Source: Moraxella nasicaprae (GTDB lineage: Bacteria; Pseudomonadota; Gammaproteobacteria; Pseudomonadales; Moraxellaceae). Taken from it: DNA of 32,000 nucleotides. Location: contig NZ_CP089977.1 in assembly GCF_025643275.1 (NCBI RefSeq), positions 810,001 through 842,000 of the forward strand, read 5' to 3'. Of the stretch, positions 1-29,378 are shown piece after piece. Every line of letters begins with the position of its first letter. Positions within the stretch are counted from its first letter, which is position 1. A program made the position numbers and the translations under genes. The notes beneath the pieces were generated by a model, which did no database searches, was not told the DNA's origin, and saw only the letters and a program-made list of their open reading frames with translations.

Positions 1-346
1 GACTGCTGGTGTCGTAGACAGATAATTCTGTGTCAGAAATTTTTTGAATGTTTTTTAGTAGCGTTTCAATATCGCTTACTTTGGGATTATGATAATGGTA
101 GGAAATGCTAATGGATTTTGCATCAGTCTTTTTATAATCCTCTCGTTTATCAAATTGGGGCAAGCCAATGGTAATGGTGTCTAATATGTATTGCAATTCG
201 ATTTTCTTTTTATCATAATCTAGTTTGATAGGCTTATGAAATTCAGCATTTTTAAACCTATCCACCCAAGAATAAATCATGATGGGCAACATACAAGCCA
301 AAACAGCGGCGATAAAAACACTACGAATCACTGTTTTGATTTTCAT
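1..346 (-). CDS. hypothetical protein, N-terminal part only (runs off the left window edge), with a hydrophobic N-terminal anchor or signal
   Basis: Absent from the supplied ORF track because there is no stop in the window. Reverse-strand ATG at 346-344, 21 nt after the prfC stop. My translation, MKIKTVIRSVFIAAVLACMLPIMIYSWVDRFKNAEFHKPIKLDYDKKKIELQYILDTITIGLPQFDKRED..., stays open for about 115 codons to position 1. Visibly more AT-rich than its neighbours. No family recognised. Confidence 0.45.
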   Translation of the reverse strand, partial: MKIKTVIRSVFIAAVLACMLPIMIYSWVDRFKNAEFHKPIKLDYDKKKIELQYILDTITIGLPQFDKREDYKKTDAKSISISYHYHNPKVSDIETLLKNIQKISDTELSVYDTSS

Positions 347-367
347 ATTACCCAATTCACATTCATA

Positions 368-1951
368 TCAATGCTCCCTCGTACTTCTAAACTCCACCTC
401 AGGATAGCGTTCTTGCATTAACTGCAAATTAACACGGCTTGGGGCAAGGTAGGTCAAATAACCACCGCCATCAAGCGACAGCTGGTCGTGGGCTTTTTTC
501 TTAAATTTTTCAAACGCCACTTTATCATCACAATGTACCCAGCGGACGGTGGCAATAGAAATCGGTTCAAAGGCACATTGCACCTTGTATTCTTCTAGCA
601 AACGATGAGCCACCACTTCAAATTGTAGCACGCCCACCGCCCCCAAAATCAGGTCGTTATTGATTTGGGGCATAAAGACTTGGGTTGCTCCTTCTTCGGA
701 TAATTGTTGCAGTCCCTTTTGTAATTGTTTGGATTTTAAAGGGTCTTTTAGCACCACACGGCGAAACAGCTCTGGGGCAAAGTGCGGAATGCCTGTAAAA
801 TTAAGGGTTTCGCCACTGGTGAAACTGTCGCCAATCTGAATCGTGCCGTGATTGTGCAAGCCGATGATGTCGCCAGCATACGCCTCTTCAAGGCTTTCAC
901 GGTCGCCTGCCAAAAACATCAACGCATCTGATACTCGCACTTCTTTGCCGATACGCACATGGTTTAATTTCATACCTTTTTCGTACTTGCCAGAGCAAAT
1001 CCGCATAAAGGCGACACGGTCTCTATGTTTGGGGTCCATATTGGCTTGGATTTTAAAGACAAAACCTGTGAAATTGGGTTCGTCTGCTTTTACCACTCGC
1101 TCCACGGCATTGTGGTCTTTGGGGGCTGGGGCGTATTTGGTTAGGGTATCTAGCACCATATCCACGCCAAAATTGCCAAGGGCTGTGCCAAAGAGTACAG
1201 GCGTTTGCTTGCCTGCCAAAAACTCATCAATATCCCAATCGCCAAACGCCATTTCGGCAAGCTCCACCCCTTCCAAAAACTCATTCCAAAGTAGCTCGCC
1301 AAGTCGCCCCTTAATCTCATCGTGGTCGTAGCCGTCTAGGGTTTCAATGTCGGTTAATTGCGTGCCAAAGCCTTTTTTGTATAGATAAGTTTTGTTATCA
1401 AAAAAGTTATACACCCCCACAAAATCCTGCCCCATACCAATGGGATAACAAAACGGCACGCATTTGATTTTTAGTACGCTTTCAATTTCATCAAGTAGGG
1501 AGAGCGGATTTTGGATTTCACGGTCCAATTTATTGACAAAACTGATGATGGGCGTATCACGCATACGGCAGACTTCCATCAGTTTAATGGTGCGTTCTTC
1601 CACGCCCTTTGCCCCATCAATGACCATCAAGGCACTATCAACGGCGGTCAAAGTGCGGTAAGTATCTTCACTAAAATCAGCGTGTCCGGGGGTGTCAAGT
1701 AGGTTTACCATACAATCGCCATAAGGAAACTGCATTACCGAAGTGGTAATCGAAATACCCCGCTCCTGCTCCATACTCATCCAGTCGGAGGTGGCGTGTT
1801 TGTCAGTTTTTCTGGATTTTACCTCGCCTGCGGTTAAGATGGCTTTGCCCCACAAAAGGAGCTTTTCGGTCATTGTGGTTTTGCCTGCGTCAGGGTGGCT
1901 GATGATGGCAAAGGTGCGGCGTTTTTGGATTTGATTGAGTGTGTTTTTCAT
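368..1951 (-). CDS. prfC: peptide chain release factor 3 (translational GTPase)
   Basis: 527-aa ORF. N-terminus [25 protein letters not shown] (G1/P-loop), DTPGHADF (G3), NKLDR (G4). Full-length resemblance to RF3. Confidence 0.95.
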
Positions 1952-2104
1952 AAAATAATTAACAGATTTATCTAAATAAAGTCGAATGAATTATACCATA
2001 AATCAACTTCATTGAACACACCCAAAGAGCGTTGCTGTTGGCTTGATTTTCTGGATAAATTTGCTTAAAATTGCACCATCGGATTACACAGATTGGGAAA
2101 TATA

Positions 2105-2932
2105 ATGCAAGCAAAAAATTGGTGGTATATTGCTCTTGTTGTCGCAGGGAGTGTTGTCTTGACTGGCTGCCCTTTTGACAAACACACAGGGTGCAGCGAT
2201 GAAGAGGGACTGGCTGCATTAAAAGAGATAATTCTTGAAAGCACCAATAAAGAGCTGACGGAACGACTGGGTGCAGAACAAAACACTGCCATCAAAAATG
2301 CTCTTGAATCCATCAATTTTGATGTCATTGGCGTTCGCACCATTGACAAAAGCTCAAAAAATACCCAAGTATTTTGTGAAGCCACACTACAAACCTCCCT
2401 GCCAAATACATTGCTTGCCAACGCTGATGAAGCCTTGAAGCTTGATGGTAGCAGCCAAACTGCACAAGAGATTCTAAACAGTAACTCTTACCAAAATAAT
2501 GACGACGGCACTTTTGACTACGAAATTGGCTACACCTTACAGCCTAGCGATGATGGCAAATGGATTTATGCCCAGCTAGACAAAGGTCAGCCTGCACAAG
2601 GGCTGACAGATATGCTTTATTGGAGTCTATCCAAAGAACAAATCGCCACAAAAATCCAACAGCAAAACGAGCAAGAAGCTGCCGACCTAGAACAGGCGAA
2701 CGCCAATTATCACGCTGCTGTCGCCCGCATTAACCGCACTTGGAACTCGCTAGACCCCTATATTCAAGATATGCTACGCCCAGAACAAAAGTCCATCAAC
2801 AACCAGCGAGAAGCAGAGTGCCGAGCCGAATCATTAGGCGTGGACGGTTCATTTGCCGCCCAAGAAATCTACCGTCTAAATTGTGAGGTTGAACGCCTAG
2901 ACAGTCGCAACGAGGAGCTTGGCTACTACTAA
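2105..2932 (+). CDS. lipoprotein with a DUF1311 / LprI-like C-terminal domain
   Basis: The ORF track starts at TTG 2093. ATG 2105 is preferred because GGGA lies 7 nt upstream. Signal peptide plus lipobox VLTGC. The C-terminal pattern NANYHAAVARINRTWNSL...QREAECRAE...YRLNCEVERLDSRNEEL resembles the Cys-containing helical DUF1311 fold. The N-terminal part is not recognised. Confidence 0.7.
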   Translation: MQAKNWWYIALVVAGSVVLTGCPFDKHTGCSDEEGLAALKEIILESTNKELTERLGAEQNTAIKNALESINFDVIGVRTIDKSSKNTQVFCEATLQTSLPNTLLANADEALKLDGSSQTAQEILNSNSYQNNDDGTFDYEIGYTLQPSDDGKWIYAQLDKGQPAQGLTDMLYWSLSKEQIATKIQQQNEQEAADLEQANANYHAAVARINRTWNSLDPYIQDMLRPEQKSINNQREAECRAESLGVDGSFAAQEIYRLNCEVERLDSRNEELGYY

Positions 2933-2994
2933 CATTAGCCAGATGGTTTTTAAATTTGATATCTTTAAACCTGATGGTAAAACAAATCAACATT

Positions 2995-3050
2995 CAAGCT
3001 GTTTTTGTCAATAAGAATCTCTTCAAAAAACAAAAACAGCTTGTTATTTT
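2995..3050 (+). terminator. intrinsic terminator after the lipoprotein gene
   Basis: Perfect 13-bp inverted repeat, CAAGCTGTTTTTG (2995-3007) / CAAAAACAGCTTG (3031-3043), followed by TTATTTTAT. The loop is rather long at 23 nt. Confidence 0.55.
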
Positions 3051-3129
3051 ATCCATAACGCCAAAGAAATCTATCAAGAAAATTATCAAAATATTTAAAT
3101 AAAAATTTAAAATTTATCATCATAAAATT

Positions 3130-3158
3130 TTAAAATATCGCCCAAAATGTGCTATACT
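3130..3158 (+). promoter_or_regulatory. candidate sigma70 promoter for polA (extended -10)
   Basis: TTAAAA (3130-3135), 17-bp spacer, TGcTATACT (TG 3150-3151, TATACT 3153-3158). It sits downstream of a very AT-rich UP-like tract and about 35 nt upstream of the polA ATG. Confidence 0.35.
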
Positions 3159-3192
3159 GGTCGTCAATAATTATGATGATGAACCAAATTTG

Positions 3193-6087
3193 ATGACCGC
3201 AATGAACAATTATCAACAAATTCCCAATCTTGCTCACTTTGACACAAGCAATATCGACACATCTGCCGCTCCTGTGGTGCTGGTCGATGGTTCTTATTAT
3301 TTATTTCGCTGTTTTTATGGTCTGCCACCCTTATCCAACAAAGACGGACTGCCCACCAATGCCGTGCGTGGCGTGCTAAATGCCCTAAACAAGCTCATCA
3401 AAAAATACAAGCCTGCCTACATGGCGGTCGCTTTTGATACCAAAGCCCCAACCTTTCGCCACGAATTATCGGAGGCTTACAAAGCACATCGCCCACCGAT
3501 GGAAGATGATTTGCGAGTACAGATTCCTTATGTGCATGAACTGATTAAACAGCTTGGCATTCCCCTCATCACCATTGATGGCTATGAAGCAGACGACATC
3601 ATCGGTACACTGGCTCATACCGCTTGCCAGCACAGACTGCCTGTCGTCATCTCAACAGGCGATAAAGACATGGCACAGCTTGTCAATGATTGCGTCATCT
3701 TAGAAGACAGCTTTACTGGCAAAATCACCGATAAAGCAGGTGTCATCGAAAAATTTGGGGTGCAAAATACCCAAATTGCCGACTACCTAACGCTGATGGG
3801 CGATGCCTCTGACGGCATTGCAGGAATTCCAAAAGTAGGACAAAAAACCGCCGCCAAACTGCTTAATGATTATGGCGATATTGATGGTATTTTGGCAAAT
3901 ATCGAACAAATCAAAGGCGTGGTTGGCAAAAACATCAAAGAGCACCAAGATACCATTCCGCTCAATCGTACGCTGGCAACCATCGTAACCAATTTGGATT
4001 TGCCCATTGGTTTTGAAGACATCAAGCTGGGCGATGCTAATGACGATGCCAAAGAACAACGCTTGACCAGTTTGTTAAGTTTTTATCAAAAGCTAGAATT
4101 CCGTCAAGAAATTACTGCCGTTTCAGAACAACTTGCCAAGCTAAACTTAGACCCACAGCACAGCACGCCAGTCGAGCAGACAGACGACCAAAATGATGCT
4201 GGCATCGTACCAAGCCTGCCTGCCGACACCGTGCAATATCACACCATCAGCACCGCACAAGAGCTTGATGATTTGGTTGCCACGCTGGCACAATCGCCCT
4301 ATTTTGCCATCGACACCGAGACAACACACCTAGATTGGCAACAAGCATCATTGGTGGGTGTCAGCATCAGCCACACCCATCATCAAGCATACTACATTCC
4401 CATCAATCATGTTGATGATTTGGGCACAAGACACGATGGACAGCTTGATGAAAACACGGTTTTGGGTGCTTTAAAGCCGATTTTACAAAACCCTGCCATC
4501 GGCAAAATCGGTCAGCATCTTAAATACGACACGCATATTTTTGCCAAATACGGCATTGATTTGCTTGGCGATATTCACACCCAGCCTGACAACTGGCACA
4601 TGGACACCATGTTGGCAAGCTATGTGATTAACGCTGCTGCCACACGGCACAATATGGACGACTTGGCAAAACACTATCTAAACACCACAACCACCACCTT
4701 TGAAGAAGTGGCAGGCAAAGGAGCCAAACAAATCACTTTTGATAGAGTGGACATCGATACAGCCAGCCACTATGCCTGTGAAGATGCGGATATTACTTTT
4801 AGATTATTTACGATATTCTCACAATATCTTGCCAATGACCATGCTGCCTCCAAGCTACTTCATCGTCTTGAAATACCCACCGCCAAACTATTGACCCAGA
4901 TGGAGCGGGCGGGTATTTTGATTGATATTGATATGCTAAGCAAATTATCACATCAATTTGATGAAGAAATTTTGGCATTAGAACACCAAGCTCACACTTT
5001 GGCGGCAGAGAATTTCAACCTTGCCAGCCCAAAACAGTTGGGCGAAATTTTGTTTGAAAAACTTGGCATTGCAGGCGGTAAAAAAACCAAAACAGGACAG
5101 TATTCCACCTCAGAAGCCGTTCTATCCAAAATCGACCACCCGCTGGTTGAGACCGTTTTGGCACATCGTAGCTTATCAAAACTAAAAAGCACCTACACCG
5201 ATGCACTTGCCAAAGCTGCTGATGACGCAGGGCGAGTACATACCAGCTATCATCAGGCATTGACCAGCACAGGCAGACTGTCGTCATCTGACCCAAATCT
5301 ACAAAATATCCCCATTCGCACCGATACAGGTCGCCTGATTCGTCAGGCATTCATTGCACCAAAAGGTCGTGTGATTTTGGCAGCTGACTATTCACAGATT
5401 GAACTTCGACTGATGGCACATTTTAGTGGAGATGAGCGATTGATTGCCGCCTTTAATGATGGGCTAGACATTCACACCGCCACCGCTGCTGAAATCATGG
5501 GTAAATCACTTGATGAAGTAACCAGCAATGAACGCCGTGCTGCCAAAGCGGTCAATTTTGGTCTGTTGTATGGCATGAGTGCCTTTGGGCTTGCCAAACA
5601 ATTAGGTGTGGATAGAAGCACCGCCCAAGACTACATCAAACGCTATTTTGCTCGCTATCCTGCAATTCATGACTACATGGAAAACACCAAAAATCATGCA
5701 AAACAGGCAGGCTATGTAAAAACCTTATTGGATAGAAAACTCTACTCGCCAGACATCAATAACAGCAACCGCATGATAAAAGAGGCTGCCGAACGAGCCG
5801 CCATCAACGCCCCGCTTCAAGGGTCGGCAGCTGAGCTGATTAAACTTGCGATGATTGCGGTGGATAAAGTATTGCCCAAAGAGCACGCCAAACTATTGCT
5901 ACAAGTCCATGACGAGCTGGTGTTTGAAATTGATGCCGATAAAGCACAAGAGATTGGCACACTCATCAAAAATGCCATGCAAAATGTACTGACCGACACC
6001 GCCAAAACGCTTGGCTGGACGGTGGATTTTGCTGTACCGCTGCTTGTCGAGATTGGTACAGGTGATAATTGGGACGAGGCTCATTAA
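3193..6087 (+). CDS. polA: DNA polymerase I (5'-3' exonuclease, 3'-5' exonuclease and polymerase domains)
   Basis: 965-aa ORF. The track start is TTG 3190 and the first ATG is at 3193. Motifs: LVDGSYYLFRCFY and GDxSDGIxGIPxVGxKTA (5' nuclease), FAIDTETT (Exo I), YACEDAD (Exo III), LxADYSQIELR (motif A), RRxAKxxNFGLLYG (motif B), QVHDELVFE (motif C). Confidence 0.96.
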   Translation: MTAMNNYQQIPNLAHFDTSNIDTSAAPVVLVDGSYYLFRCFYGLPPLSNKDGLPTNAVRGVLNALNKLIKKYKPAYMAVAFDTKAPTFRHELSEAYKAHRPPMEDDLRVQIPYVHELIKQLGIPLITIDGYEADDIIGTLAHTACQHRLPVVISTGDKDMAQLVNDCVILEDSFTGKITDKAGVIEKFGVQNTQIADYLTLMGDASDGIAGIPKVGQKTAAKLLNDYGDIDGILANIEQIKGVVGKNIKEHQDTIPLNRTLATIVTNLDLPIGFEDIKLGDANDDAKEQRLTSLLSFYQKLEFRQEITAVSEQLAKLNLDPQHSTPVEQTDDQNDAGIVPSLPADTVQYHTISTAQELDDLVATLAQSPYFAIDTETTHLDWQQASLVGVSISHTHHQAYYIPINHVDDLGTRHDGQLDENTVLGALKPILQNPAIGKIGQHLKYDTHIFAKYGIDLLGDIHTQPDNWHMDTMLASYVINAAATRHNMDDLAKHYLNTTTTTFEEVAGKGAKQITFDRVDIDTASHYACEDADITFRLFTIFSQYLANDHAASKLLHRLEIPTAKLLTQMERAGILIDIDMLSKLSHQFDEEILALEHQAHTLAAENFNLASPKQLGEILFEKLGIAGGKKTKTGQYSTSEAVLSKIDHPLVETVLAHRSLSKLKSTYTDALAKAADDAGRVHTSYHQALTSTGRLSSSDPNLQNIPIRTDTGRLIRQAFIAPKGRVILAADYSQIELRLMAHFSGDERLIAAFNDGLDIHTATAAEIMGKSLDEVTSNERRAAKAVNFGLLYGMSAFGLAKQLGVDRSTAQDYIKRYFARYPAIHDYMENTKNHAKQAGYVKTLLDRKLYSPDINNSNRMIKEAAERAAINAPLQGSAAELIKLAMIAVDKVLPKEHAKLLLQVHDELVFEIDADKAQEIGTLIKNAMQNVLTDTAKTLGWTVDFAVPLLVEIGTGDNWDEAH

Positions 6088-6113
6088 CACCCCAAGCCCA
6101 ACATCAAAAAAAA

Positions 6114-6160
6114 CCGCTTGTTTTGCCCAGTTTTGGACATATTAAACAGGCGGTTTTTTT
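6114..6160 (+). terminator. intrinsic terminator of polA
   Basis: CCGCTTGTTT (6114-6123) pairs with AAACAGGCGG (6144-6153) with one G-U pair, followed by a T7 run (6154-6160). An A-run precedes the stem. The loop is 20 nt. Confidence 0.6.
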
Positions 6161-6365
6161 GATAAGTGGTACATCATCAATCATCGATAAAATCAAAGCC
6201 ATGCATCATCTGCAAGCTCATTCATCGGCTGTTTGGACAATAGGTTGTTAAAAGTTAGCATTAAGAAAAACCGTTCGTGATAAGCTAAGTTTCAGCCATC
6301 AAGGGTTTCACCACTCTTGGGCAAGTCTTTGAGCGAACACAAAATCCAGCATGAAAAAATCTCAT

Positions 6366-6505
6366 AAAAAACAACGGGTCAGACCAAAAAGCCTAACCCG
6401 TTGTTTTTCCAAGATTTTACCAAAAGTAAAATCCGTATCCTTACCAACCTTCCTTGAATAGCACCTCATCCCTGCCCTGCTCCATCAGGGTTCTCCATTG
6501 CTATG
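6366..6505 (-). ncRNA. candidate Csr/Rsm-family (RsmY/RsmZ-like) CsrA-sequestering small RNA
   Basis: An ORF-free segment of about 140 nt between a -10 element and a strong terminator on the minus strand. It has seven GGA trinucleotides, six of them in ANGGA context (AUGGA x2, AGGGA, AAGGA x2, ACGGA). Hand-foldable stems: AUAGCA/UGCUAU enclosing CCCU-GAUGGAGC-AGGG, and GAUUUUAC-UUUUG-GUAAAAUC. Terminator: AACAACGGGU...ACCCGUUGUU plus a U6 run. The ends are estimates (TSS about 6504-6506, 3' end about 6366). Confidence 0.55.
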
Positions 6506-6511
6506 AGGCGT

Positions 6512-6579
6512 ATTATGCTGGATTTATGCCAAAATAAAAAGACGCAAAAATCGTCAATCCATGTAAGAAATTTCCTACA
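6512..6579 (-). promoter_or_regulatory. GacA/UvrY-box-like upstream activating sequence plus -10 element for the candidate sRNA
   Basis: The minus strand reads TGTAGG-AAATTT-CTTACA (6579 to 6562), which has one mismatch to the published GacA box TGTAAG-N6-CTTACA. CATAAT lies 44 nt downstream (6517 to 6512). The -35 is poor (TTTTTA), as expected for an activator-dependent promoter. The box centre is about 65 nt upstream of the predicted start. Confidence 0.5.
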
Positions 6580-6611
6580 AATCTACCATCAGCATACCAC
6601 ATACTTTGGCA

Positions 6612-7157
6612 TTAACGCATTCTGGCAAGCAGATTGTCTTTTTTGACAAATTGATGATACAACGCCGCACCGATATGTAGCACCACTAATGCCAATAAAG
6701 CATTCCACATCAACCCACGATGCACACCCATCAAAGTACGAGCCAAATCACGGTTTGCCTCAGCCGCCCCTGCTATCTGAAAAATACCAAAGACATCAAC
6801 GCCATAACCGCCAAAATATGCCGACAAAAAACCAGTTACAGGCATGCCAATCATCGCCACATATAACGCCAGATGCGTCAAGTGCGATATGGCAGTTTGC
6901 CACGCTGGCATCGGCAGAGCAGCAGGTGCTTTGCTAACAACACGATTGATGAGACGAAGTAGCGTCCAAATCAAAAAACTAAAACCCACCGCTTTATGCA
7001 AACCGATAAAATCCTCGCCTTGCTCCACCAAAAACCAAGCTGTCACAATCAATAATGCACCCACCCAGTGAAACAGGCGAGCGGCCAGATTGTATTTTTG
7101 AATTTGCATTGCATTTGTTGCTAGCTGTGTCATCATATCACCAAAAAAATAAGCCAT
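6612..7157 (-). CDS. cytochrome b561 family membrane protein
   Basis: 181-aa ORF with four predicted TM helices and conserved His positions (RLFHWVGALLIV..., HLTHLALYV, LHIGAALYH). The C-terminal KKDNLLARM matches the family end motif. The true start may be an internal Met (for example MQIQKY at about 7109). Confidence 0.85.
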   Translation of the reverse strand: MAYFFGDMMTQLATNAMQIQKYNLAARLFHWVGALLIVTAWFLVEQGEDFIGLHKAVGFSFLIWTLLRLINRVVSKAPAALPMPAWQTAISHLTHLALYVAMIGMPVTGFLSAYFGGYGVDVFGIFQIAGAAEANRDLARTLMGVHRGLMWNALLALVVLHIGAALYHQFVKKDNLLARMR

Positions 7158-7297: not shown

Positions 7298-7331
7298 GCT
7301 GTTTGTTGTACTTAGTTGATTGATTGATTTT

Positions 7332-8300
7332 ATGAACCATTTTGCCTTGGGCGTATGCCTGATGATGCTTGCTTGCCTGCTGTCATTGACCGCCTGCAAA
7401 CCAAAATCCGCCACGCCATCGCACGACACGCCCATCACTCTTAGCACCGACCAAGTCGCCAGCGTCAAAATGACTCGCTATCAGCCCAGCTTAACTTTGG
7501 CTGGCACCATCAAGCCACATCGCAGCCAACGATTGCACATGCCGTTTGATGGCAAGATTCTCTACATCGCCAAAACAGGTACTCATCATCAAGCAGGCAG
7601 CCCATTGGTGCAGATTTTGCCAATTCATCAGAGCGACATTCAGATGCTCACCACGCTCAAACAGTACGATGCACACAGTCAAAGTTATCAGCTGATGGTC
7701 GATTTTGATGGCACGATTGACCAACAATTTGTCCAAACTGACGATGAAGTGCTTGCTGAAAGTACGCTATTAAATGTGGTTGATACTAAGACACTTGACA
7801 TGGTCAGCCTTGCTCCTGTCAGCATAAAATCATATTTGCACATCGGTACAACCGTGCAGCTGAACACCCAAAACACCCAGCAAGGTCATTTTTCAGGGCA
7901 AATCAGCCAAATCGATGAAGAACAAAATCTGCTCAAAATCCACATTCGTATCAAACCAAAACCCGACCAAGCACCACTTGCTCTTGGGCAATCAGTCTAT
8001 GGCAGCCTAGACTATGGGCAATCTGCGGTGGCTGGACTTGTGCCATATCTTGCCATCAGCAATGAGCAAGGCAAATCTTTATCATTGGCACAGTTTCACC
8101 CACCTCGCCCTGCCCTGCCTGTCAAAGGTTACATTTGGCTCATCAAACAAGACCATACTTTGCACAAAAAATTGGTCGATGTCATCGAATATCGTCAAGC
8201 GTCCAATCAATTTTTGGTCACAGGTGTCAGTGAAGACAGTCTGGTCGTTACCACACCGCCAAACGATGCACTTGATGGGCGTACTGTCAGACTGCACTAA
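7332..8300 (+). CDS. lipoprotein resembling an efflux-pump periplasmic adaptor (membrane fusion protein) with a minimal or absent alpha-hairpin
   Basis: The track start is TTG 7320. ATG 7332 gives MNHFALGVCLMMLACLLSLTAC (signal peptide plus lipobox). Layout: split lipoyl-like halves (HMPFDGKILYIAKTGTHHQAGSPLVQI ... LMVDFDGTIDQQFVQTDDEVLAESTLLNVVD) separated by only about 25 aa. A beta-barrel-like part follows (GTTVQL...FSGQISQIDEE...LKIHIRI...LGQSVYGSL), then a membrane-proximal tail (...FLVTGVSEDSLVVTTPPNDALDGRTVRL). The family assignment rests on pattern recall only. Confidence 0.6.
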   Translation: MNHFALGVCLMMLACLLSLTACKPKSATPSHDTPITLSTDQVASVKMTRYQPSLTLAGTIKPHRSQRLHMPFDGKILYIAKTGTHHQAGSPLVQILPIHQSDIQMLTTLKQYDAHSQSYQLMVDFDGTIDQQFVQTDDEVLAESTLLNVVDTKTLDMVSLAPVSIKSYLHIGTTVQLNTQNTQQGHFSGQISQIDEEQNLLKIHIRIKPKPDQAPLALGQSVYGSLDYGQSAVAGLVPYLAISNEQGKSLSLAQFHPPRPALPVKGYIWLIKQDHTLHKKLVDVIEYRQASNQFLVTGVSEDSLVVTTPPNDALDGRTVRLH

Positions 8301-8361
8301 ACGCACGATGTCAGCTTGCGTTACATTATTGCTGACAATTTGCCAAAATCACGGATTTGTG

Positions 8362-8397
8362 TGCCAATTGGCAAAAAATAATGCAAATCACTACAAT
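8362..8397 (+). promoter_or_regulatory. candidate sigma70 promoter of the two-component operon, with a 12-bp palindrome over the -35
   Basis: TTGGCA (8368-8373), 18-bp spacer, TACAAT (8392-8397). The perfect palindrome TGCCAATTGGCA (8362-8373) overlaps the -35. Confidence 0.35.
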
Positions 8398-8478
8398 TTT
8401 GTGCTTGCCAAGCTGTACAAATATTGGCAAGATATAGCAATTAAACAGTTATCCGATAAAAGCAAGATAAGGCTTAAC

Positions 8479-9201
8479 ATGAATAAACAAATTTTATTGA
8501 TTGAAGACGATCCAGATTTGGCAGAATTGATTAGCGACTATCTGTCGATGAACTACTACGAAGTACACCATGCTGCCACAGGGCAAATGGGTCTGGATAT
8601 CCTAGAAGCCAAAGAACGAGAAATCAGCCTGATTGTGCTGGATTTGATGCTACCTGACATGGATGGCATGCAAGTTTGCCAAAAAGTGCGTTCATCAAAA
8701 AATACACTCATCAACAAAGTGCCAATCGTAATGCTGACCGCCAAAGGCGACACCACCGACCGTGTTTTGGGCTTGGAAATGGGTGCAGATGATTATGTCG
8801 CCAAGCCCTTTGAGCCACGAGAGCTGTTAGCTCGCATTCGTGCAGTATTGCGTCGCCATGAAACGCCCAACCAAGCAGATGCCAATTTGGGTAGTCTTAG
8901 CTTTGGTCGCTTATCGGTATTTCCCGACAGCCATGAAGTGACCATCGATGAAAAGCCTGTGCGTCTGACCACACACCAGTTCCAACTACTTCATTATTTT
9001 GCCACTCACGCTGGCAAAGTGCTAAGCCGTGAACAGCTGTGGCAAGCAATGCCAAATGATGACAGCTCTGAGAATATTGACCGTGCCATTGATGTGCACA
9101 TCTCTCGCCTGCGTGCCTTGATTGAAGACAATCCACGCCAACCAAAACGCATCATCACCGTGCGTGGCGTTGGTTATCAATTTGCAACCGATCAGGTCTA
9201 A
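8479..9201 (+). CDS. OmpR/PhoB-family DNA-binding response regulator
   Basis: The track ORF (8014-9201) overlaps the upstream gene. The conserved receiver domain starts at ATG 8479 (MNKQILLIEDDPDLAELI...LDLMLPDMDG...MLTAKGD...LGLEMGADDYVAKPFEPRELLARIRAVLRR). The winged-helix C-terminus contains RAIDVHISRLR...IITVRGVGYQF. Confidence 0.92.
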   Translation: MNKQILLIEDDPDLAELISDYLSMNYYEVHHAATGQMGLDILEAKEREISLIVLDLMLPDMDGMQVCQKVRSSKNTLINKVPIVMLTAKGDTTDRVLGLEMGADDYVAKPFEPRELLARIRAVLRRHETPNQADANLGSLSFGRLSVFPDSHEVTIDEKPVRLTTHQFQLLHYFATHAGKVLSREQLWQAMPNDDSSENIDRAIDVHISRLRALIEDNPRQPKRIITVRGVGYQFATDQV

Positions 9202-9243
9202 TGAGACATTGGCGTGCCAATCGGTACGCCTTTTTGGTGTTTT

Positions 9244-10821
9244 ATGCAAAATCAACATGGTAAATTCGGCTTTCGTTCTGTGGCGGCACGCTTATTCATC
9301 AGCGTGTTTTTGGCGTTAATCACTTTTACAATTGCATTCATCTTACTATCCCAATTTGCCCACAATAATTCAGATGCTGCTCGCTCTCGTGCCATCGCCA
9401 GCCAGATTCTAAGTCAAATAGACCCATTTTTGATTGAAGCTGAAACACTCAGCAGCCAAAACAACCTACTACAAGCCAGATTTTCTATGGTGGTCATCAA
9501 AAAAAGTTTTGATATTTTTGATGAAAGCCTTAGTGCCAAGATTGGCTTATACGCTCCTGATGGTCGTCTCATCTTACAAACCGAAGACACCGAGTTGCCA
9601 CAGCAGCTACCACCCAACCCGCCTTGGCTAAGCACTTTGTTTGCCCCAAGTCCGCCTCATACCACCATCACCAACCCACTGGGTTACACCATTTGGTATG
9701 AAAGTCGCACACCGCCAATCCAGCGACCTTTATCAGGCTGGTTTAACTTATTTTCTGGGACGATTTTACTGTTGGTCATCATGTCGGCGGTGCTGTGGTG
9801 GATTTCACACAACATCACTTGGCGTATCAATCAGATGAGCCGTCAAATTGGCAGATTGGGCGATGGTGATTTTAGCGTCAGGGTCAGCGAAGAAGGCAAT
9901 GATGAGATTGCTGCTCTTGCCTATGGCTTTAACCAATCTGCTCAAAAAATCGAACAACTCATCAATGCCAACAGCCTGCTTTTGGCACACGCCTCACACG
10001 AATTTCGCACCCCCATCACTCGCATTCGCTTGCAGATTGAGATGATGGACATGCTGGCTGCCAAACTAAGCGAGGAAGATAAAGCCAAATTTGACAAACG
10101 AGCTTTTGCCATCAACCGTGATTTGACGGGGCTAAATGACCTTGTCGAGAGTATCCTGCTGATCAGTCGCCTTGATGCAGGACACGCCCTACAAGCCACC
10201 GAGCAAGTTGATTTGTATGAGCTGGTTCGCCAAGAATGCCAGCATTATCCAGAAGCCAGTCTTGCTGCCGAAGCCATCGTTTTGCCCGCTCAGCCTAAGC
10301 TATTGACACATCTGGTTCGCAATCTGCTTAATAATGCCATGATTCATGGCGTGCCACCCGTACAAGTCTATCTATACGGTGTCAGTACACCTGACGATGC
10401 CCAACTCATTCCACAGGCACTCATCGACTGCATGAACGATGACTGCACCAGCGATGTCTTGTTTGAAAATACGTCAGATGATGAGGATAATACCCACAAA
10501 AAAACCGCCTTTTTAAAACGGTTTGGCAAAGATAAACCCAAAGAAAAGCCTAAGCCAAATTTTGCCGTACTGTCTTTCATCGATCAGGGCGATGGCATTG
10601 CCGAAGACAAACGCCAAGATATTTTTAGCCCCTTTGTTCGTCTAAAACAAGAGAAAAAAGGCTCAGGATTAGGCTTATCATTGGTATCGCAGATTGTCGA
10701 AGCCCACAACGGACAAATCTATACCGACACCTATCAAGGCAAAACTCGATTTGTGGTCATCTTGCCCACCAAGCCCAAAGCCACCTTTGATGACACCACC
10801 GACAAATCCGCCACAAAATAA
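9244..10821 (+). CDS. sensor histidine kinase (two TM helices, periplasmic domain, HAMP, HisKA, HATPase_c with a large insertion)
   Basis: The track start is GTG 9214. ATG 9244 is preferred because GGTG lies 5 nt upstream. H-box HASHEFRTPIT, N-box LVRNLLNNAMIHG, G1 DQGDGI, F-box IFSPFVR, G2 GSGLGLSLV. About 85 aa separate the N and G1 boxes. Confidence 0.9.
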   Translation: MQNQHGKFGFRSVAARLFISVFLALITFTIAFILLSQFAHNNSDAARSRAIASQILSQIDPFLIEAETLSSQNNLLQARFSMVVIKKSFDIFDESLSAKIGLYAPDGRLILQTEDTELPQQLPPNPPWLSTLFAPSPPHTTITNPLGYTIWYESRTPPIQRPLSGWFNLFSGTILLLVIMSAVLWWISHNITWRINQMSRQIGRLGDGDFSVRVSEEGNDEIAALAYGFNQSAQKIEQLINANSLLLAHASHEFRTPITRIRLQIEMMDMLAAKLSEEDKAKFDKRAFAINRDLTGLNDLVESILLISRLDAGHALQATEQVDLYELVRQECQHYPEASLAAEAIVLPAQPKLLTHLVRNLLNNAMIHGVPPVQVYLYGVSTPDDAQLIPQALIDCMNDDCTSDVLFENTSDDEDNTHKKTAFLKRFGKDKPKEKPKPNFAVLSFIDQGDGIAEDKRQDIFSPFVRLKQEKKGSGLGLSLVSQIVEAHNGQIYTDTYQGKTRFVVILPTKPKATFDDTTDKSATK

Positions 10822-29153: not shown

Positions 29154-29229
29154 GGGGCTATAGCTCAGTTGGTAGAGCACTTGCATGGCATGCAAGGGGT
29201 CAGCGGTTCGACTCCGCTTAGCTCCACCA
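29154..29229 (+). tRNA. tRNA-Ala (anticodon GGC)
   Basis: Hand-folded cloverleaf. Acceptor GGGGCTA/TAGCTCC with the G3:U70 alanine identity pair, anticodon loop ATGGCAT, T-loop TTCGACT, encoded CCA. Confidence 0.95.
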
Positions 29230-29302: not shown

Positions 29303-29378
29303 GCTCCATTCGTCTAGAGGCCTAGGACACCGCCCTTTCACGGCGGTAACAGGGGTTCGAATCCCCTATGGAGTGCCA
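29303..29378 (+). tRNA. tRNA-Glu (anticodon UUC)
   Basis: GCTCCAT-TC-GTCT-AGAGGCCTA-GGAC-A-CCGCC-CTTTCAC-GGCGG-TAAC-AGGGG-TTCGAAT-CCCCT-ATGGAGT-G-CCA. This is a typical gammaproteobacterial tRNA-Glu body. The first acceptor pair is G1:U72. Confidence 0.92.

Follow-up and report, generated by a model that had tools for sequence, protein, structure and literature searches.

A polA-linked small RNA gene in Moraxella nasicaprae and its relatives: a probable GacA/UvrY-activated CsrA decoy

Introduction

The question raised by the locus studied here is whether the spacer between two convergent genes of Moraxella nasicaprae, polA and a cytochrome b561 gene, holds a gene of its own, and what kind of RNA such a gene would make. 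Throughout, the window means the whole stretch of DNA that was analysed, 32,000 nucleotides (32 kb) of contig NZ_CP089977.1 (positions 810,001 to 842,000), and coordinates count from its first letter. polA (3190–6087, plus strand; Pfam DNA_pol_A and related domains) ends at 6087 and the cytochrome b561 gene (6612–7157, minus strand; Pfam PF01292) ends at 6612, leaving a spacer of 524 bp in which every listed open reading frame (ORF) is at most 60 aa long. A first-pass annotation, made from the letters and their reading frames, had described the two genes as convergent with no credible ORF between them, as the Pfam assignments and the ORF listing bear out, and had read a gene for a small RNA (sRNA) of Csr/Rsm type on the minus strand of the spacer, at 6366–6579, upstream of which the cytochrome b561 gene lies on the same strand. 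The in-silico tests that we ran were favourable to this reading. We consider it probable that the unit encodes a stand-alone minus-strand sRNA of ~139 nt, of the size of RsmX or RsmY, which would be activated by GacA/UvrY and would titrate CsrA.

In gammaproteobacteria CsrA exerts master control over metabolism, biofilm formation and virulence at the post-transcriptional level, and decoy RNAs set its activity. In Moraxellaceae, including the pathogens among Acinetobacter and Moraxella, such decoys are the part of the Gac-Csr cascade that is still missing. M. catarrhalis has csrA, and in it a hybrid kinase is linked to a response regulator of the LuxR family (PMC9409589); the Moraxellaceae form a distinct BarA/GacS branch, BarA group III (PMC8639471); and in A. 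baumannii, where GacSA and CsrA are present, the sponge RNAs are expressly listed as unknown (bioRxiv 10.1101/2021.08.11.455981; table in PMC11611043). CsrA-sponge RNAs of the architecture considered here were predicted in Acinetobacter and Psychrobacter in 2006 (PMC1488887), and as sponges they were still uncharacterised in 2021–2022 (bioRxiv 10.1101/2021.08.11.455981; PMC11611043). The criteria of Kulkarni et al. for such RNAs are an intergenic position, richness in AGGA/ARGGA, a rho-independent terminator, GGA triplets in loops and a conserved upstream site (PMC1488887).

Conservation of a box-to-terminator unit beside polA

Orthologues were sought through neighbour-gene anchors and by one DNA-pattern scan, and the unit that runs from an upstream palindromic box to a terminator was found at full length in seven Moraxella-like lineages, namely the window itself, L081, L089 (L089–L092), L100, L101, L082 and L093; in a further locus, L083, the contig breaks off shortly after the box. 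Wherever the RNA occurs, it converges with polA (including L082, L093, L089, L100 and L101). On its upstream side most lineages have the cytochrome b561 gene, L100 an unrelated ORF and L101 topA; since this neighbour varies and the unit stays intact, we take the sRNA to be an independent gene and not a 3' untranslated region (3'UTR). Judged by this synteny, the unit is an independent module tied to the 3' end of polA in one clade. As a side observation, polA and topA of L101 (ENA ERZ11448931 contig_16, 1–7086) are broken up into numerous short ORFs, as happens in long-read assemblies with a high error rate, and homopolymer lengths there, for instance of the terminator U-tract, are therefore untrustworthy.

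The footprint of conservation coincides with the proposed unit. Upstream of the box, identity to the window is 14–36% in six lineages, which is to say unalignable, and 94% in the near-identical L081. It is 78–100% in the box itself (eight lineages, the seven full-length ones and L083), 47–98% in the spacer between box and promoter and 70–99% in the 5' domain of the RNA. The first-pass annotation had named the alignment of related polA-downstream spacers as a check on its reading, and in this comparison the box, five GGA triplets and the distance between box and -10 hexamer were conserved in the polA-side spacers of all seven lineages. The five triplets are invariant, and the bases beside them vary. 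With 46 of 79 columns invariant, the hypergeometric probability that the 15 GGA columns would all be invariant is 9.5e-5, and GGA is the sole trinucleotide with more than one fully invariant occurrence. A strong hairpin followed by a U-tract stands at the same place in all orthologues, in unrelated sequences; terminators replaced in sequence and yet always in place argue for selection for a defined 3' end. A covariance model of the family, R1, matches the orthologues at 72–122 bits, and a search with it of the window and 23 loci returned the known members only, with no copy nearby.

The anchors differed in their reach. Cytochrome b561 worked as a synteny anchor for the closest relatives only. 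Its protein has a 98% match in one assembly, its best named relatives belong to Moraxella and Psychrobacter, and the named Moraxella with a related protein are M. caviae (58%), M. lacunata and M. catarrhalis. At the cytochrome b561 loci of M. caviae, M. catarrhalis, P. arcticus, L085 and L095 other genes follow downstream, with no sRNA. The C-terminus of polA has 74% identity to that of Psychrobacter alimentarius and 64% to that of Acinetobacter, the latter being the best among the matches listed in a scan on the universal motif DPNLQNIP. The polA 3' side of P. alimentarius has no box and no GGA RNA, and that of Acinetobacter is likewise without the sRNA. The 80 polA loci from the DPNLQNIP scan (454 kb) served as negative and positive controls. 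One of them, L001 of Acinetobacter sp. NIPH 2699, carries a box-like sequence with two mismatches, TAAAAGCAAAAGCTTACA, at 3418–3435 beside the polA terminator; it adjoins the 3' end of a minus-strand ORF (3444–3992), no GGA-rich RNA lies nearby, and we judged it a chance match. The pattern scan of metagenomes gave one true orthologue, L100, and one false positive, L099, which is coding sequence. Viral contigs scanned with the core pattern gave zero matches, and by this measure the sRNA is not phage-borne.

Box and promoter

Read on the minus strand, the unit begins with the palindromic upstream activating box TGTAGGAAATTTCTTACA (6579–6562), which is one mismatch away from TGTAAGN6CTTACA, the published UvrY/GacA consensus (PMC3171408), as the first-pass annotation had noted. 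Counted from the predicted start, these 18 bp reach from about -75 to about -58. It is the only box with at most one mismatch in the window, where 0.09 would be expected, and there is none in the 454 kb of control polA loci; at up to two mismatches the pattern is expected about once per 32 kb. In L089 and L100 the box is a perfect TGTAAGN6CTTACA.

The hexamer CATAAT (6517–6512, minus strand) follows 44 nt after the box, with a poor -35 element, TTTTTA, at a spacing of 17 nt, so that this part of the earlier description is also confirmed. The combination suggests a sigma-70 promoter that depends on an activator. All seven full-length orthologues retain (C/T)ATAATA, and in no lineage is there any indel between box and -10 hexamer, the 44-nt spacing being fixed. 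A simple promoter scan made no call at this hexamer because the -35 is weak; the scan, which covered promoters and terminators, flagged neither the promoter nor the terminator of the sRNA and was uninformative. Four nucleotides downstream of the box stands a second conserved element, TTGACG (6557–6552, minus strand), whose TTG (6557–6555) is invariant in all eight lineages. It would not serve as the -35 of the conserved -10 hexamer, being 34 nt away and thus too far. We note that in L089 and L100 TTGACG could pair with TATGAT or TATTAT at 15 nt as a second promoter, and that in L082 and L093 this pairing is not possible. Short palindromes between box and -10 hexamer (GACG..CGTC, ATAG..CTAT), considered as covariation, are not in one register and were dropped.

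The predicted RNA and its GGA motifs

The predicted sRNA, ~139 nt, runs from 6504 to 6366 on the minus strand, its start being placed at A6504, 7 nt after the -10 hexamer, and its end at the U6 tract. The region 6366–6505 contains seven GGA triplets, six of them as ANGGA, including CAGGGAUGA, which agrees with what had been read at first. This density is unique in the window: sliding windows of 140 nt contain on average 1.0 GGA and 0.25 ANGGA, and seven plus six are reached only here in 32 kb of both strands. ANGGA occurs more often here than in dinucleotide-shuffled versions of the region (P = 0.0006); the plain GGA count is not significant by the same shuffles (P = 0.12) because the region is rich in G and A. 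The same density scan also picks loci that Rfam names CsrC, for example Klebsiella L044, and thus had a positive control.

The five invariant triplets, which we number GGA1 to GGA5 in the order of transcription, stand in the contexts AAYGGAG, GAUGGA, CARGGAUGA, YAWGGAA and YARGGAW, of which CARGGAUGA is, on sequence, close to a high-affinity CsrA site. The last two triplets of the window, GGA6 and GGA7, lack conservation in the orthologues. The conserved ones are spaced 12–18 nt apart, a spacing that would let one CsrA dimer bridge neighbouring sites, as in E. coli CsrA.

The intrinsic terminator (6409–6366, minus strand) consists of an A-tract, a G+C-containing core stem of 13 bp (CAACGGGUUAGGC/GGUCUGACCCGUUG) and the U6 tract (6371–6366). 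The hairpin and the U6 are as first described; the stem, then put at 10 bp, is longer, the minimum-free-energy (MFE) structure having 20 pairs with the A/U extension included. The region folds with a z-score of -5.3, to which the terminator is the main contributor.

Fold of the RNA

A consensus fold was computed by RNAalifold on a structure-blind MAFFT alignment (A3), and a hand alignment gave the same helices. The fold consists of the helices P1, H1 and H2 and a small hexaloop hairpin, thus recovering hairpins that had been drawn by hand in the first-pass annotation (P1/H1 and H2). In the 5' domain (6504–6458, minus strand), P1 pairs AUAGCA (6504–6499) with UGCUAU (6463–6458) and encloses GGA1 (6496–6494), in an internal loop, then hairpin H1, and then GGA3 (6471–6469), which lies within CAGGGAUGA and is likewise in an internal loop. 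H1 pairs CCCU (6490–6487) with AGGG (6478–6475), and its 8-nt loop GAUGGAGC carries GGA2 (6483–6481). Downstream, the small hairpin UCAA-GGAAGG-UUGG (6457–6444), with four base pairs, presents GGA4 (6453–6451) in its hexaloop, and GGA5 (UAAGGAU, 6440–6438), invariant in the seven lineages, is in a single-stranded linker. H2, GAUUUUAC-UUUUG-GUAAAAUC (6433–6413), has the non-conserved GGA6 (6434–6432) at its 5' base.

All five conserved GGAs are thus unpaired, two in hairpin loops, two in an internal loop and one in a linker. In the alignment ensemble their unpaired probabilities are 0.94–1.0, apart from the first G of GGA1 at 0.55 (GGA1–3, 0.55–1.0; GGA4, 0.94–0.98; GGA5, 0.96–0.98), and the non-conserved GGA6 falls in the H2 stem. 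Some compensatory changes accompany the fold. The H1 pair 22-31 is seen as U-A, U-G and C-G, and pair 54-65 of the hexaloop hairpin as C-G, U-G and U-A; L093 has a paired U:A insertion in P1 and changes two pairs of H2 on both sides (A-U to G-C, C-G to A-U), and L089 changes a U-A of H2 to U-G. For P1, H1 and H2, the helices covered by the pair statistics (the hexaloop hairpin was left out), 92.9% of the cells are standard pairs, compared with 29–50% when the 3' partners are slid by one to three columns. Pairs changed on both sides number three (U-A to C-G in H1, A-U to G-C and C-G to A-U in H2), a count reached in 11 of 500 shuffles. With this consensus fold, the structural check proposed at first, that the fold should leave the GGA motifs accessible, came out in favour of the sRNA. 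A separate peculiarity of L082 (2300–2345) is an insertion of ~32 nt in the apical part of H2, with a tandem duplication, GTGCATTGAC and GTGCATCGAC.

Curated RNA families

At the gathering score, Rfam finds nothing in the window except two tRNA genes on the plus strand (29154–29226 and 29303–29375), which are its sole matches at that score. Matches of a miRNA-like kind to the terminator hairpin at E ≤ 10 are spurious. Five orthologues run against Rfam gave zero matches. The CsrC model, as a positive control, scored 238.8 bits in the Klebsiella locus L044, at 4630–4884, 1.26 kb downstream of polA. The Spot 42 model (RF00021) has no match in the window or the orthologues, and it scores 87–129 bits in eight control loci from enterobacteria, Vibrio and Shewanella, where Spot 42 comes directly after polA (L044, 3514–3632; L005, L012, L034, L038, L047, L050, L064). 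In gammaproteobacteria, sRNA genes turn up repeatedly on the 3' side of polA. The first-pass annotation had not recognised the sRNA as a named family member, and neither did these models. The sRNA most likely founds a family of its own that has not been described, as far as its sequence and predicted structure allow one to judge, and our literature search found no published description of a polA-linked sRNA in the Moraxella-like clade. What is new is a conserved polA-linked RNA family without a match among curated families; the kind of regulator is well known.

Surroundings of the gene

There is no terminator in the window sequence between the cytochrome b561 stop codon (6612) and the box, and the two genes share a strand, so read-through from cytochrome b561 into the sRNA is possible. 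Such read-through may be an addition to an sRNA with its own promoter, not a rival of it. On the other side, polA has its own terminator at ~6100–6146, a long hairpin that looks bidirectional because A- and T-runs flank it. In most lineages two terminators lie between polA and the sRNA, and in L093 a single one is shared (2240–2275). Between the sRNA terminator and the polA terminator of the window lie 220 bp without a credible ORF (6146–6365). The near-identical strain L081 matches the window down to ~6255 only and then diverges until its contig ends, which suggests an insertion or a rearrangement breakpoint.

Beyond the cytochrome b561 gene, the ORFs listed at 7320–8300 and 8014–9201 on the plus strand overlap; the genes in 7320–9201 probably are one for a ~326-aa protein with weak HlyD-like matches and one for a 240-aa OmpR-type response regulator (8479–9198). 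The regulator is followed by a HAMP/HisKA kinase (9214–10818), and the pair, divergent from cytochrome b561, is syntenic in L081–L084 and L088. The output domain of this adjacent two-component regulator is Trans_reg_C, the OmpR type, as opposed to the GerE type found in GacA (Pfam).

Discussion

Our consideration of what this RNA does starts from the five sequence features by which CsrA sponges have been recognised (PMC1488887), all of which are found here. The unit lies in an intergenic spacer of 524 bp, and the ORFs inside the RNA are not conserved; the motif (AGGA/ARGGA, or ANGGA in pseudomonads) is dense, with seven GGA and six ANGGA in 140 nt; a terminator follows in the window and in every orthologue; the conserved GGAs are unpaired in the consensus fold, less clearly so in single-sequence MFE structures; and the upstream box is conserved at a fixed distance from the -10 hexamer. 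These features, the consensus match and spacing of the box, and the Rsm-like size and GGA number lead us to propose a GacA/UvrY-activated CsrA decoy. In the proposed scenario, the sRNA would be driven by a sigma-70 promoter whose -10 (CATAAT) is good and whose -35 is poor, and a response regulator of the GacA/UvrY family sitting on the box 44 bp upstream of the -10 would switch this promoter on. Transcription would end at the strong intrinsic terminator. The resulting RNA would display five invariant unpaired GGAs, one of them in CARGGAUGA, and might thereby act as a decoy for several CsrA/RsmA dimers, which would release target mRNAs from CsrA control. From the motifs we infer that a GacA-type regulator binds the box and that CsrA binds the sRNA.

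Several observations weigh against this proposal. The transcription and the start site of the sRNA are read from its promoter-like sequence. The corresponding loci of M. caviae, M. catarrhalis, Psychrobacter and Acinetobacter have no copy of the sRNA. The Rfam models of the Csr/Rsm families (CsrB, CsrC RF00084, RsmY, PrrB_RsmZ, rsmX) gave zero matches in 6050–6700 even at E ≤ 10, and tblastn with E. coli CsrA, P. aeruginosa RsmA and UvrY found no csrA or gacA in the 32-kb window or the compared loci, the receiver-domain matches there being to the OmpR-type regulator only. The box is degenerate in L093 (TGTCGCCAATTTCCTACA) and L101 (TGTAGGAAATATCGCACA), and three of the six ANGGA motifs are strict AGGA/ARGGA, the rest being AUGGA or ACGGA. 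As to the fold, single-sequence MFE structures disagree with one another, that of the window RNA partly burying GGA3, GGA6 and GGA7, and in P1 there is no covariation by substitution. The effective sequence number of R1 is 1.3, and four of the seven lineages are close relatives; with so few independent lineages the covariation evidence is suggestive and statistically thin.

Conservation and structure prove a functional RNA and not its partner, and one might thus consider a conserved, independent sRNA that works by another mechanism, either base-pairing with mRNAs (with Hfq or without) or binding a different protein. The GGA stretches would then be seed or anti-Shine-Dalgarno-like sequences, and the box would belong to a different regulator of the NarL/LuxR family. 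The want of similarity to known Csr/Rsm families in Rfam and of csrA and gacA in the DNA searched would fit such an RNA, and a terminator with a U-tract would suit Hfq. Five separately conserved, unpaired GGAs in variable surroundings, however, fit a repeated protein-binding motif and not a contiguous seed; the spacing in the box is of the GacA type (TGT-N12-ACA), not that of a CRP site or a lux-box; and all five published features of CsrA sponges are present (PMC1488887). We therefore hold another mechanism to be unlikely, if the most serious of the competing explanations.

A smaller departure from the CsrA-decoy reading concerns translation. The AUG of GAUGGA, with GGAG 7 nt upstream as a Shine-Dalgarno-like sequence, opens an ORF of 14 codons, MEQGRDEVLFKEGW (6484–6440, minus strand), and the window, L081, L089 and L100 share this ORF, with conservative replacements, and the spacing of its Shine-Dalgarno-like sequence. 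It would be a long shot that the sRNA is dual-functional, being at once a CsrA sponge and, through GGAG and the AUG of GAUGGA, a working ribosome-binding site for a peptide of 10–14 residues. Were it true, the peptide would read M-E/D-Q/W-G-R/K-D-E/D..., and CsrA occupancy and translation of the decoy would compete, giving a self-reporting sponge, which to our knowledge has not been described for any Csr/Rsm RNA.

Two further explanations are, in our estimate, very improbable. The RNA might have no promoter of its own and be just the tail of the cytochrome b561 mRNA, its 3'UTR and terminator, in which case box and -10 hexamer would be fortuitous: the gene is on the same strand with no terminator after its stop codon (6612), and the promoter scan calls no promoter there. 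Against this speaks the fact that the box-to-terminator unit follows an unrelated ORF in L100 and topA in L101, that no sRNA accompanies the cytochrome b561 orthologues of M. caviae, M. catarrhalis, P. arcticus and others, and that box, spacing and -10 are conserved where the sequence just past the cytochrome b561 stop is unalignable. The other explanation, which we would put just as low, is that the locus is a micropeptide gene, or a dual-function RNA, built on the 14-codon ORF. The ORF suffers a frameshift in L082 and is cut down to 10 codons in L093 and to 13 in L101, RNA pairing in H1 explains the same substitutions, and mimicry of a Shine-Dalgarno sequence plus AUG is expected of a CsrA decoy. 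A 35-aa ORF at 6362–6469 was also considered as a gene and rejected, since its start codon is lost in L082 and it has no Pfam match.

Chance co-occurrence of a palindrome, a -10-like hexamer and GGAs beside a bidirectional terminator, for which one could cite the expected frequency of two-mismatch boxes and the raw GGA count (P = 0.12), is effectively refuted by conservation, the arrangement being kept where its flanks are unalignable, and by the observed one-mismatch box (expectation 0.09) and the ANGGA enrichment (P = 0.0006).

The CsrA-decoy reading, to which we thus return, reveals no new regulatory principle. It offers a concrete RNA candidate, a covariance model, R1, for annotating related genomes, and a promoter that is likely GacA-dependent and could be used as a reporter.

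Comparison with known systems

Several known RNAs resemble the one described here in place or in kind. In Enterobacterales, Vibrio and Shewanella the spacer immediately after polA is likewise occupied by an sRNA, Spot 42 (spf), which is on the polA strand, pairs with its targets and is not GGA-rich, whereas the sRNA here is on the opposite strand. The enterobacterial CsrB and CsrC share the proposed logic, that of a CsrA decoy activated by BarA/UvrY, and CsrC shares the polA neighbourhood as well, in the opposite orientation relative to polA. They are much longer (~245–370 nt), with far more GGA repeats than the sRNA, and in the case of CsrC the window has no yihA/yihI synteny and the model no match.

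Within the same family, Moraxellaceae, the predicted rsmX/rsmY/rsmZ RNAs of Psychrobacter arcticus and Acinetobacter sp. ADP1 were recognised by the same five criteria (PMC1488887). They lie at Psyc_1521/1522, prc/slyD and Psyc_0155 in the former and at ACIAD0938/0939, ACIAD0480/gltP and ACIAD3594/3596 in the latter, among other places, not beside polA, in a comparison made by location only.

The RsmX, RsmY and RsmZ RNAs of Pseudomonas have no detectable similarity in sequence or structure to the sRNA, which differs from them also in its place at the polA 3' side, in the A/T-only centre of its box (AAATTT) and in having five conserved GGAs. In other respects the likeness is close. They belong to the same size class, ~110–140 nt, and carry 6–10 GGA, mainly loop-exposed, as here (PMC7911923); RsmX and RsmY have 6–7 each, and it is these two that the sRNA matches in size and GGA number (PMC7911923). 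The Rsm RNAs share the 18-bp palindromic box of the TGTAAGN6CTTACA type, for example TGTAAGCATTCTCTTACA of rsmY (PMC4353343), and, like the sRNA, they have a weak -35 and an intrinsic terminator and are stand-alone intergenic genes.

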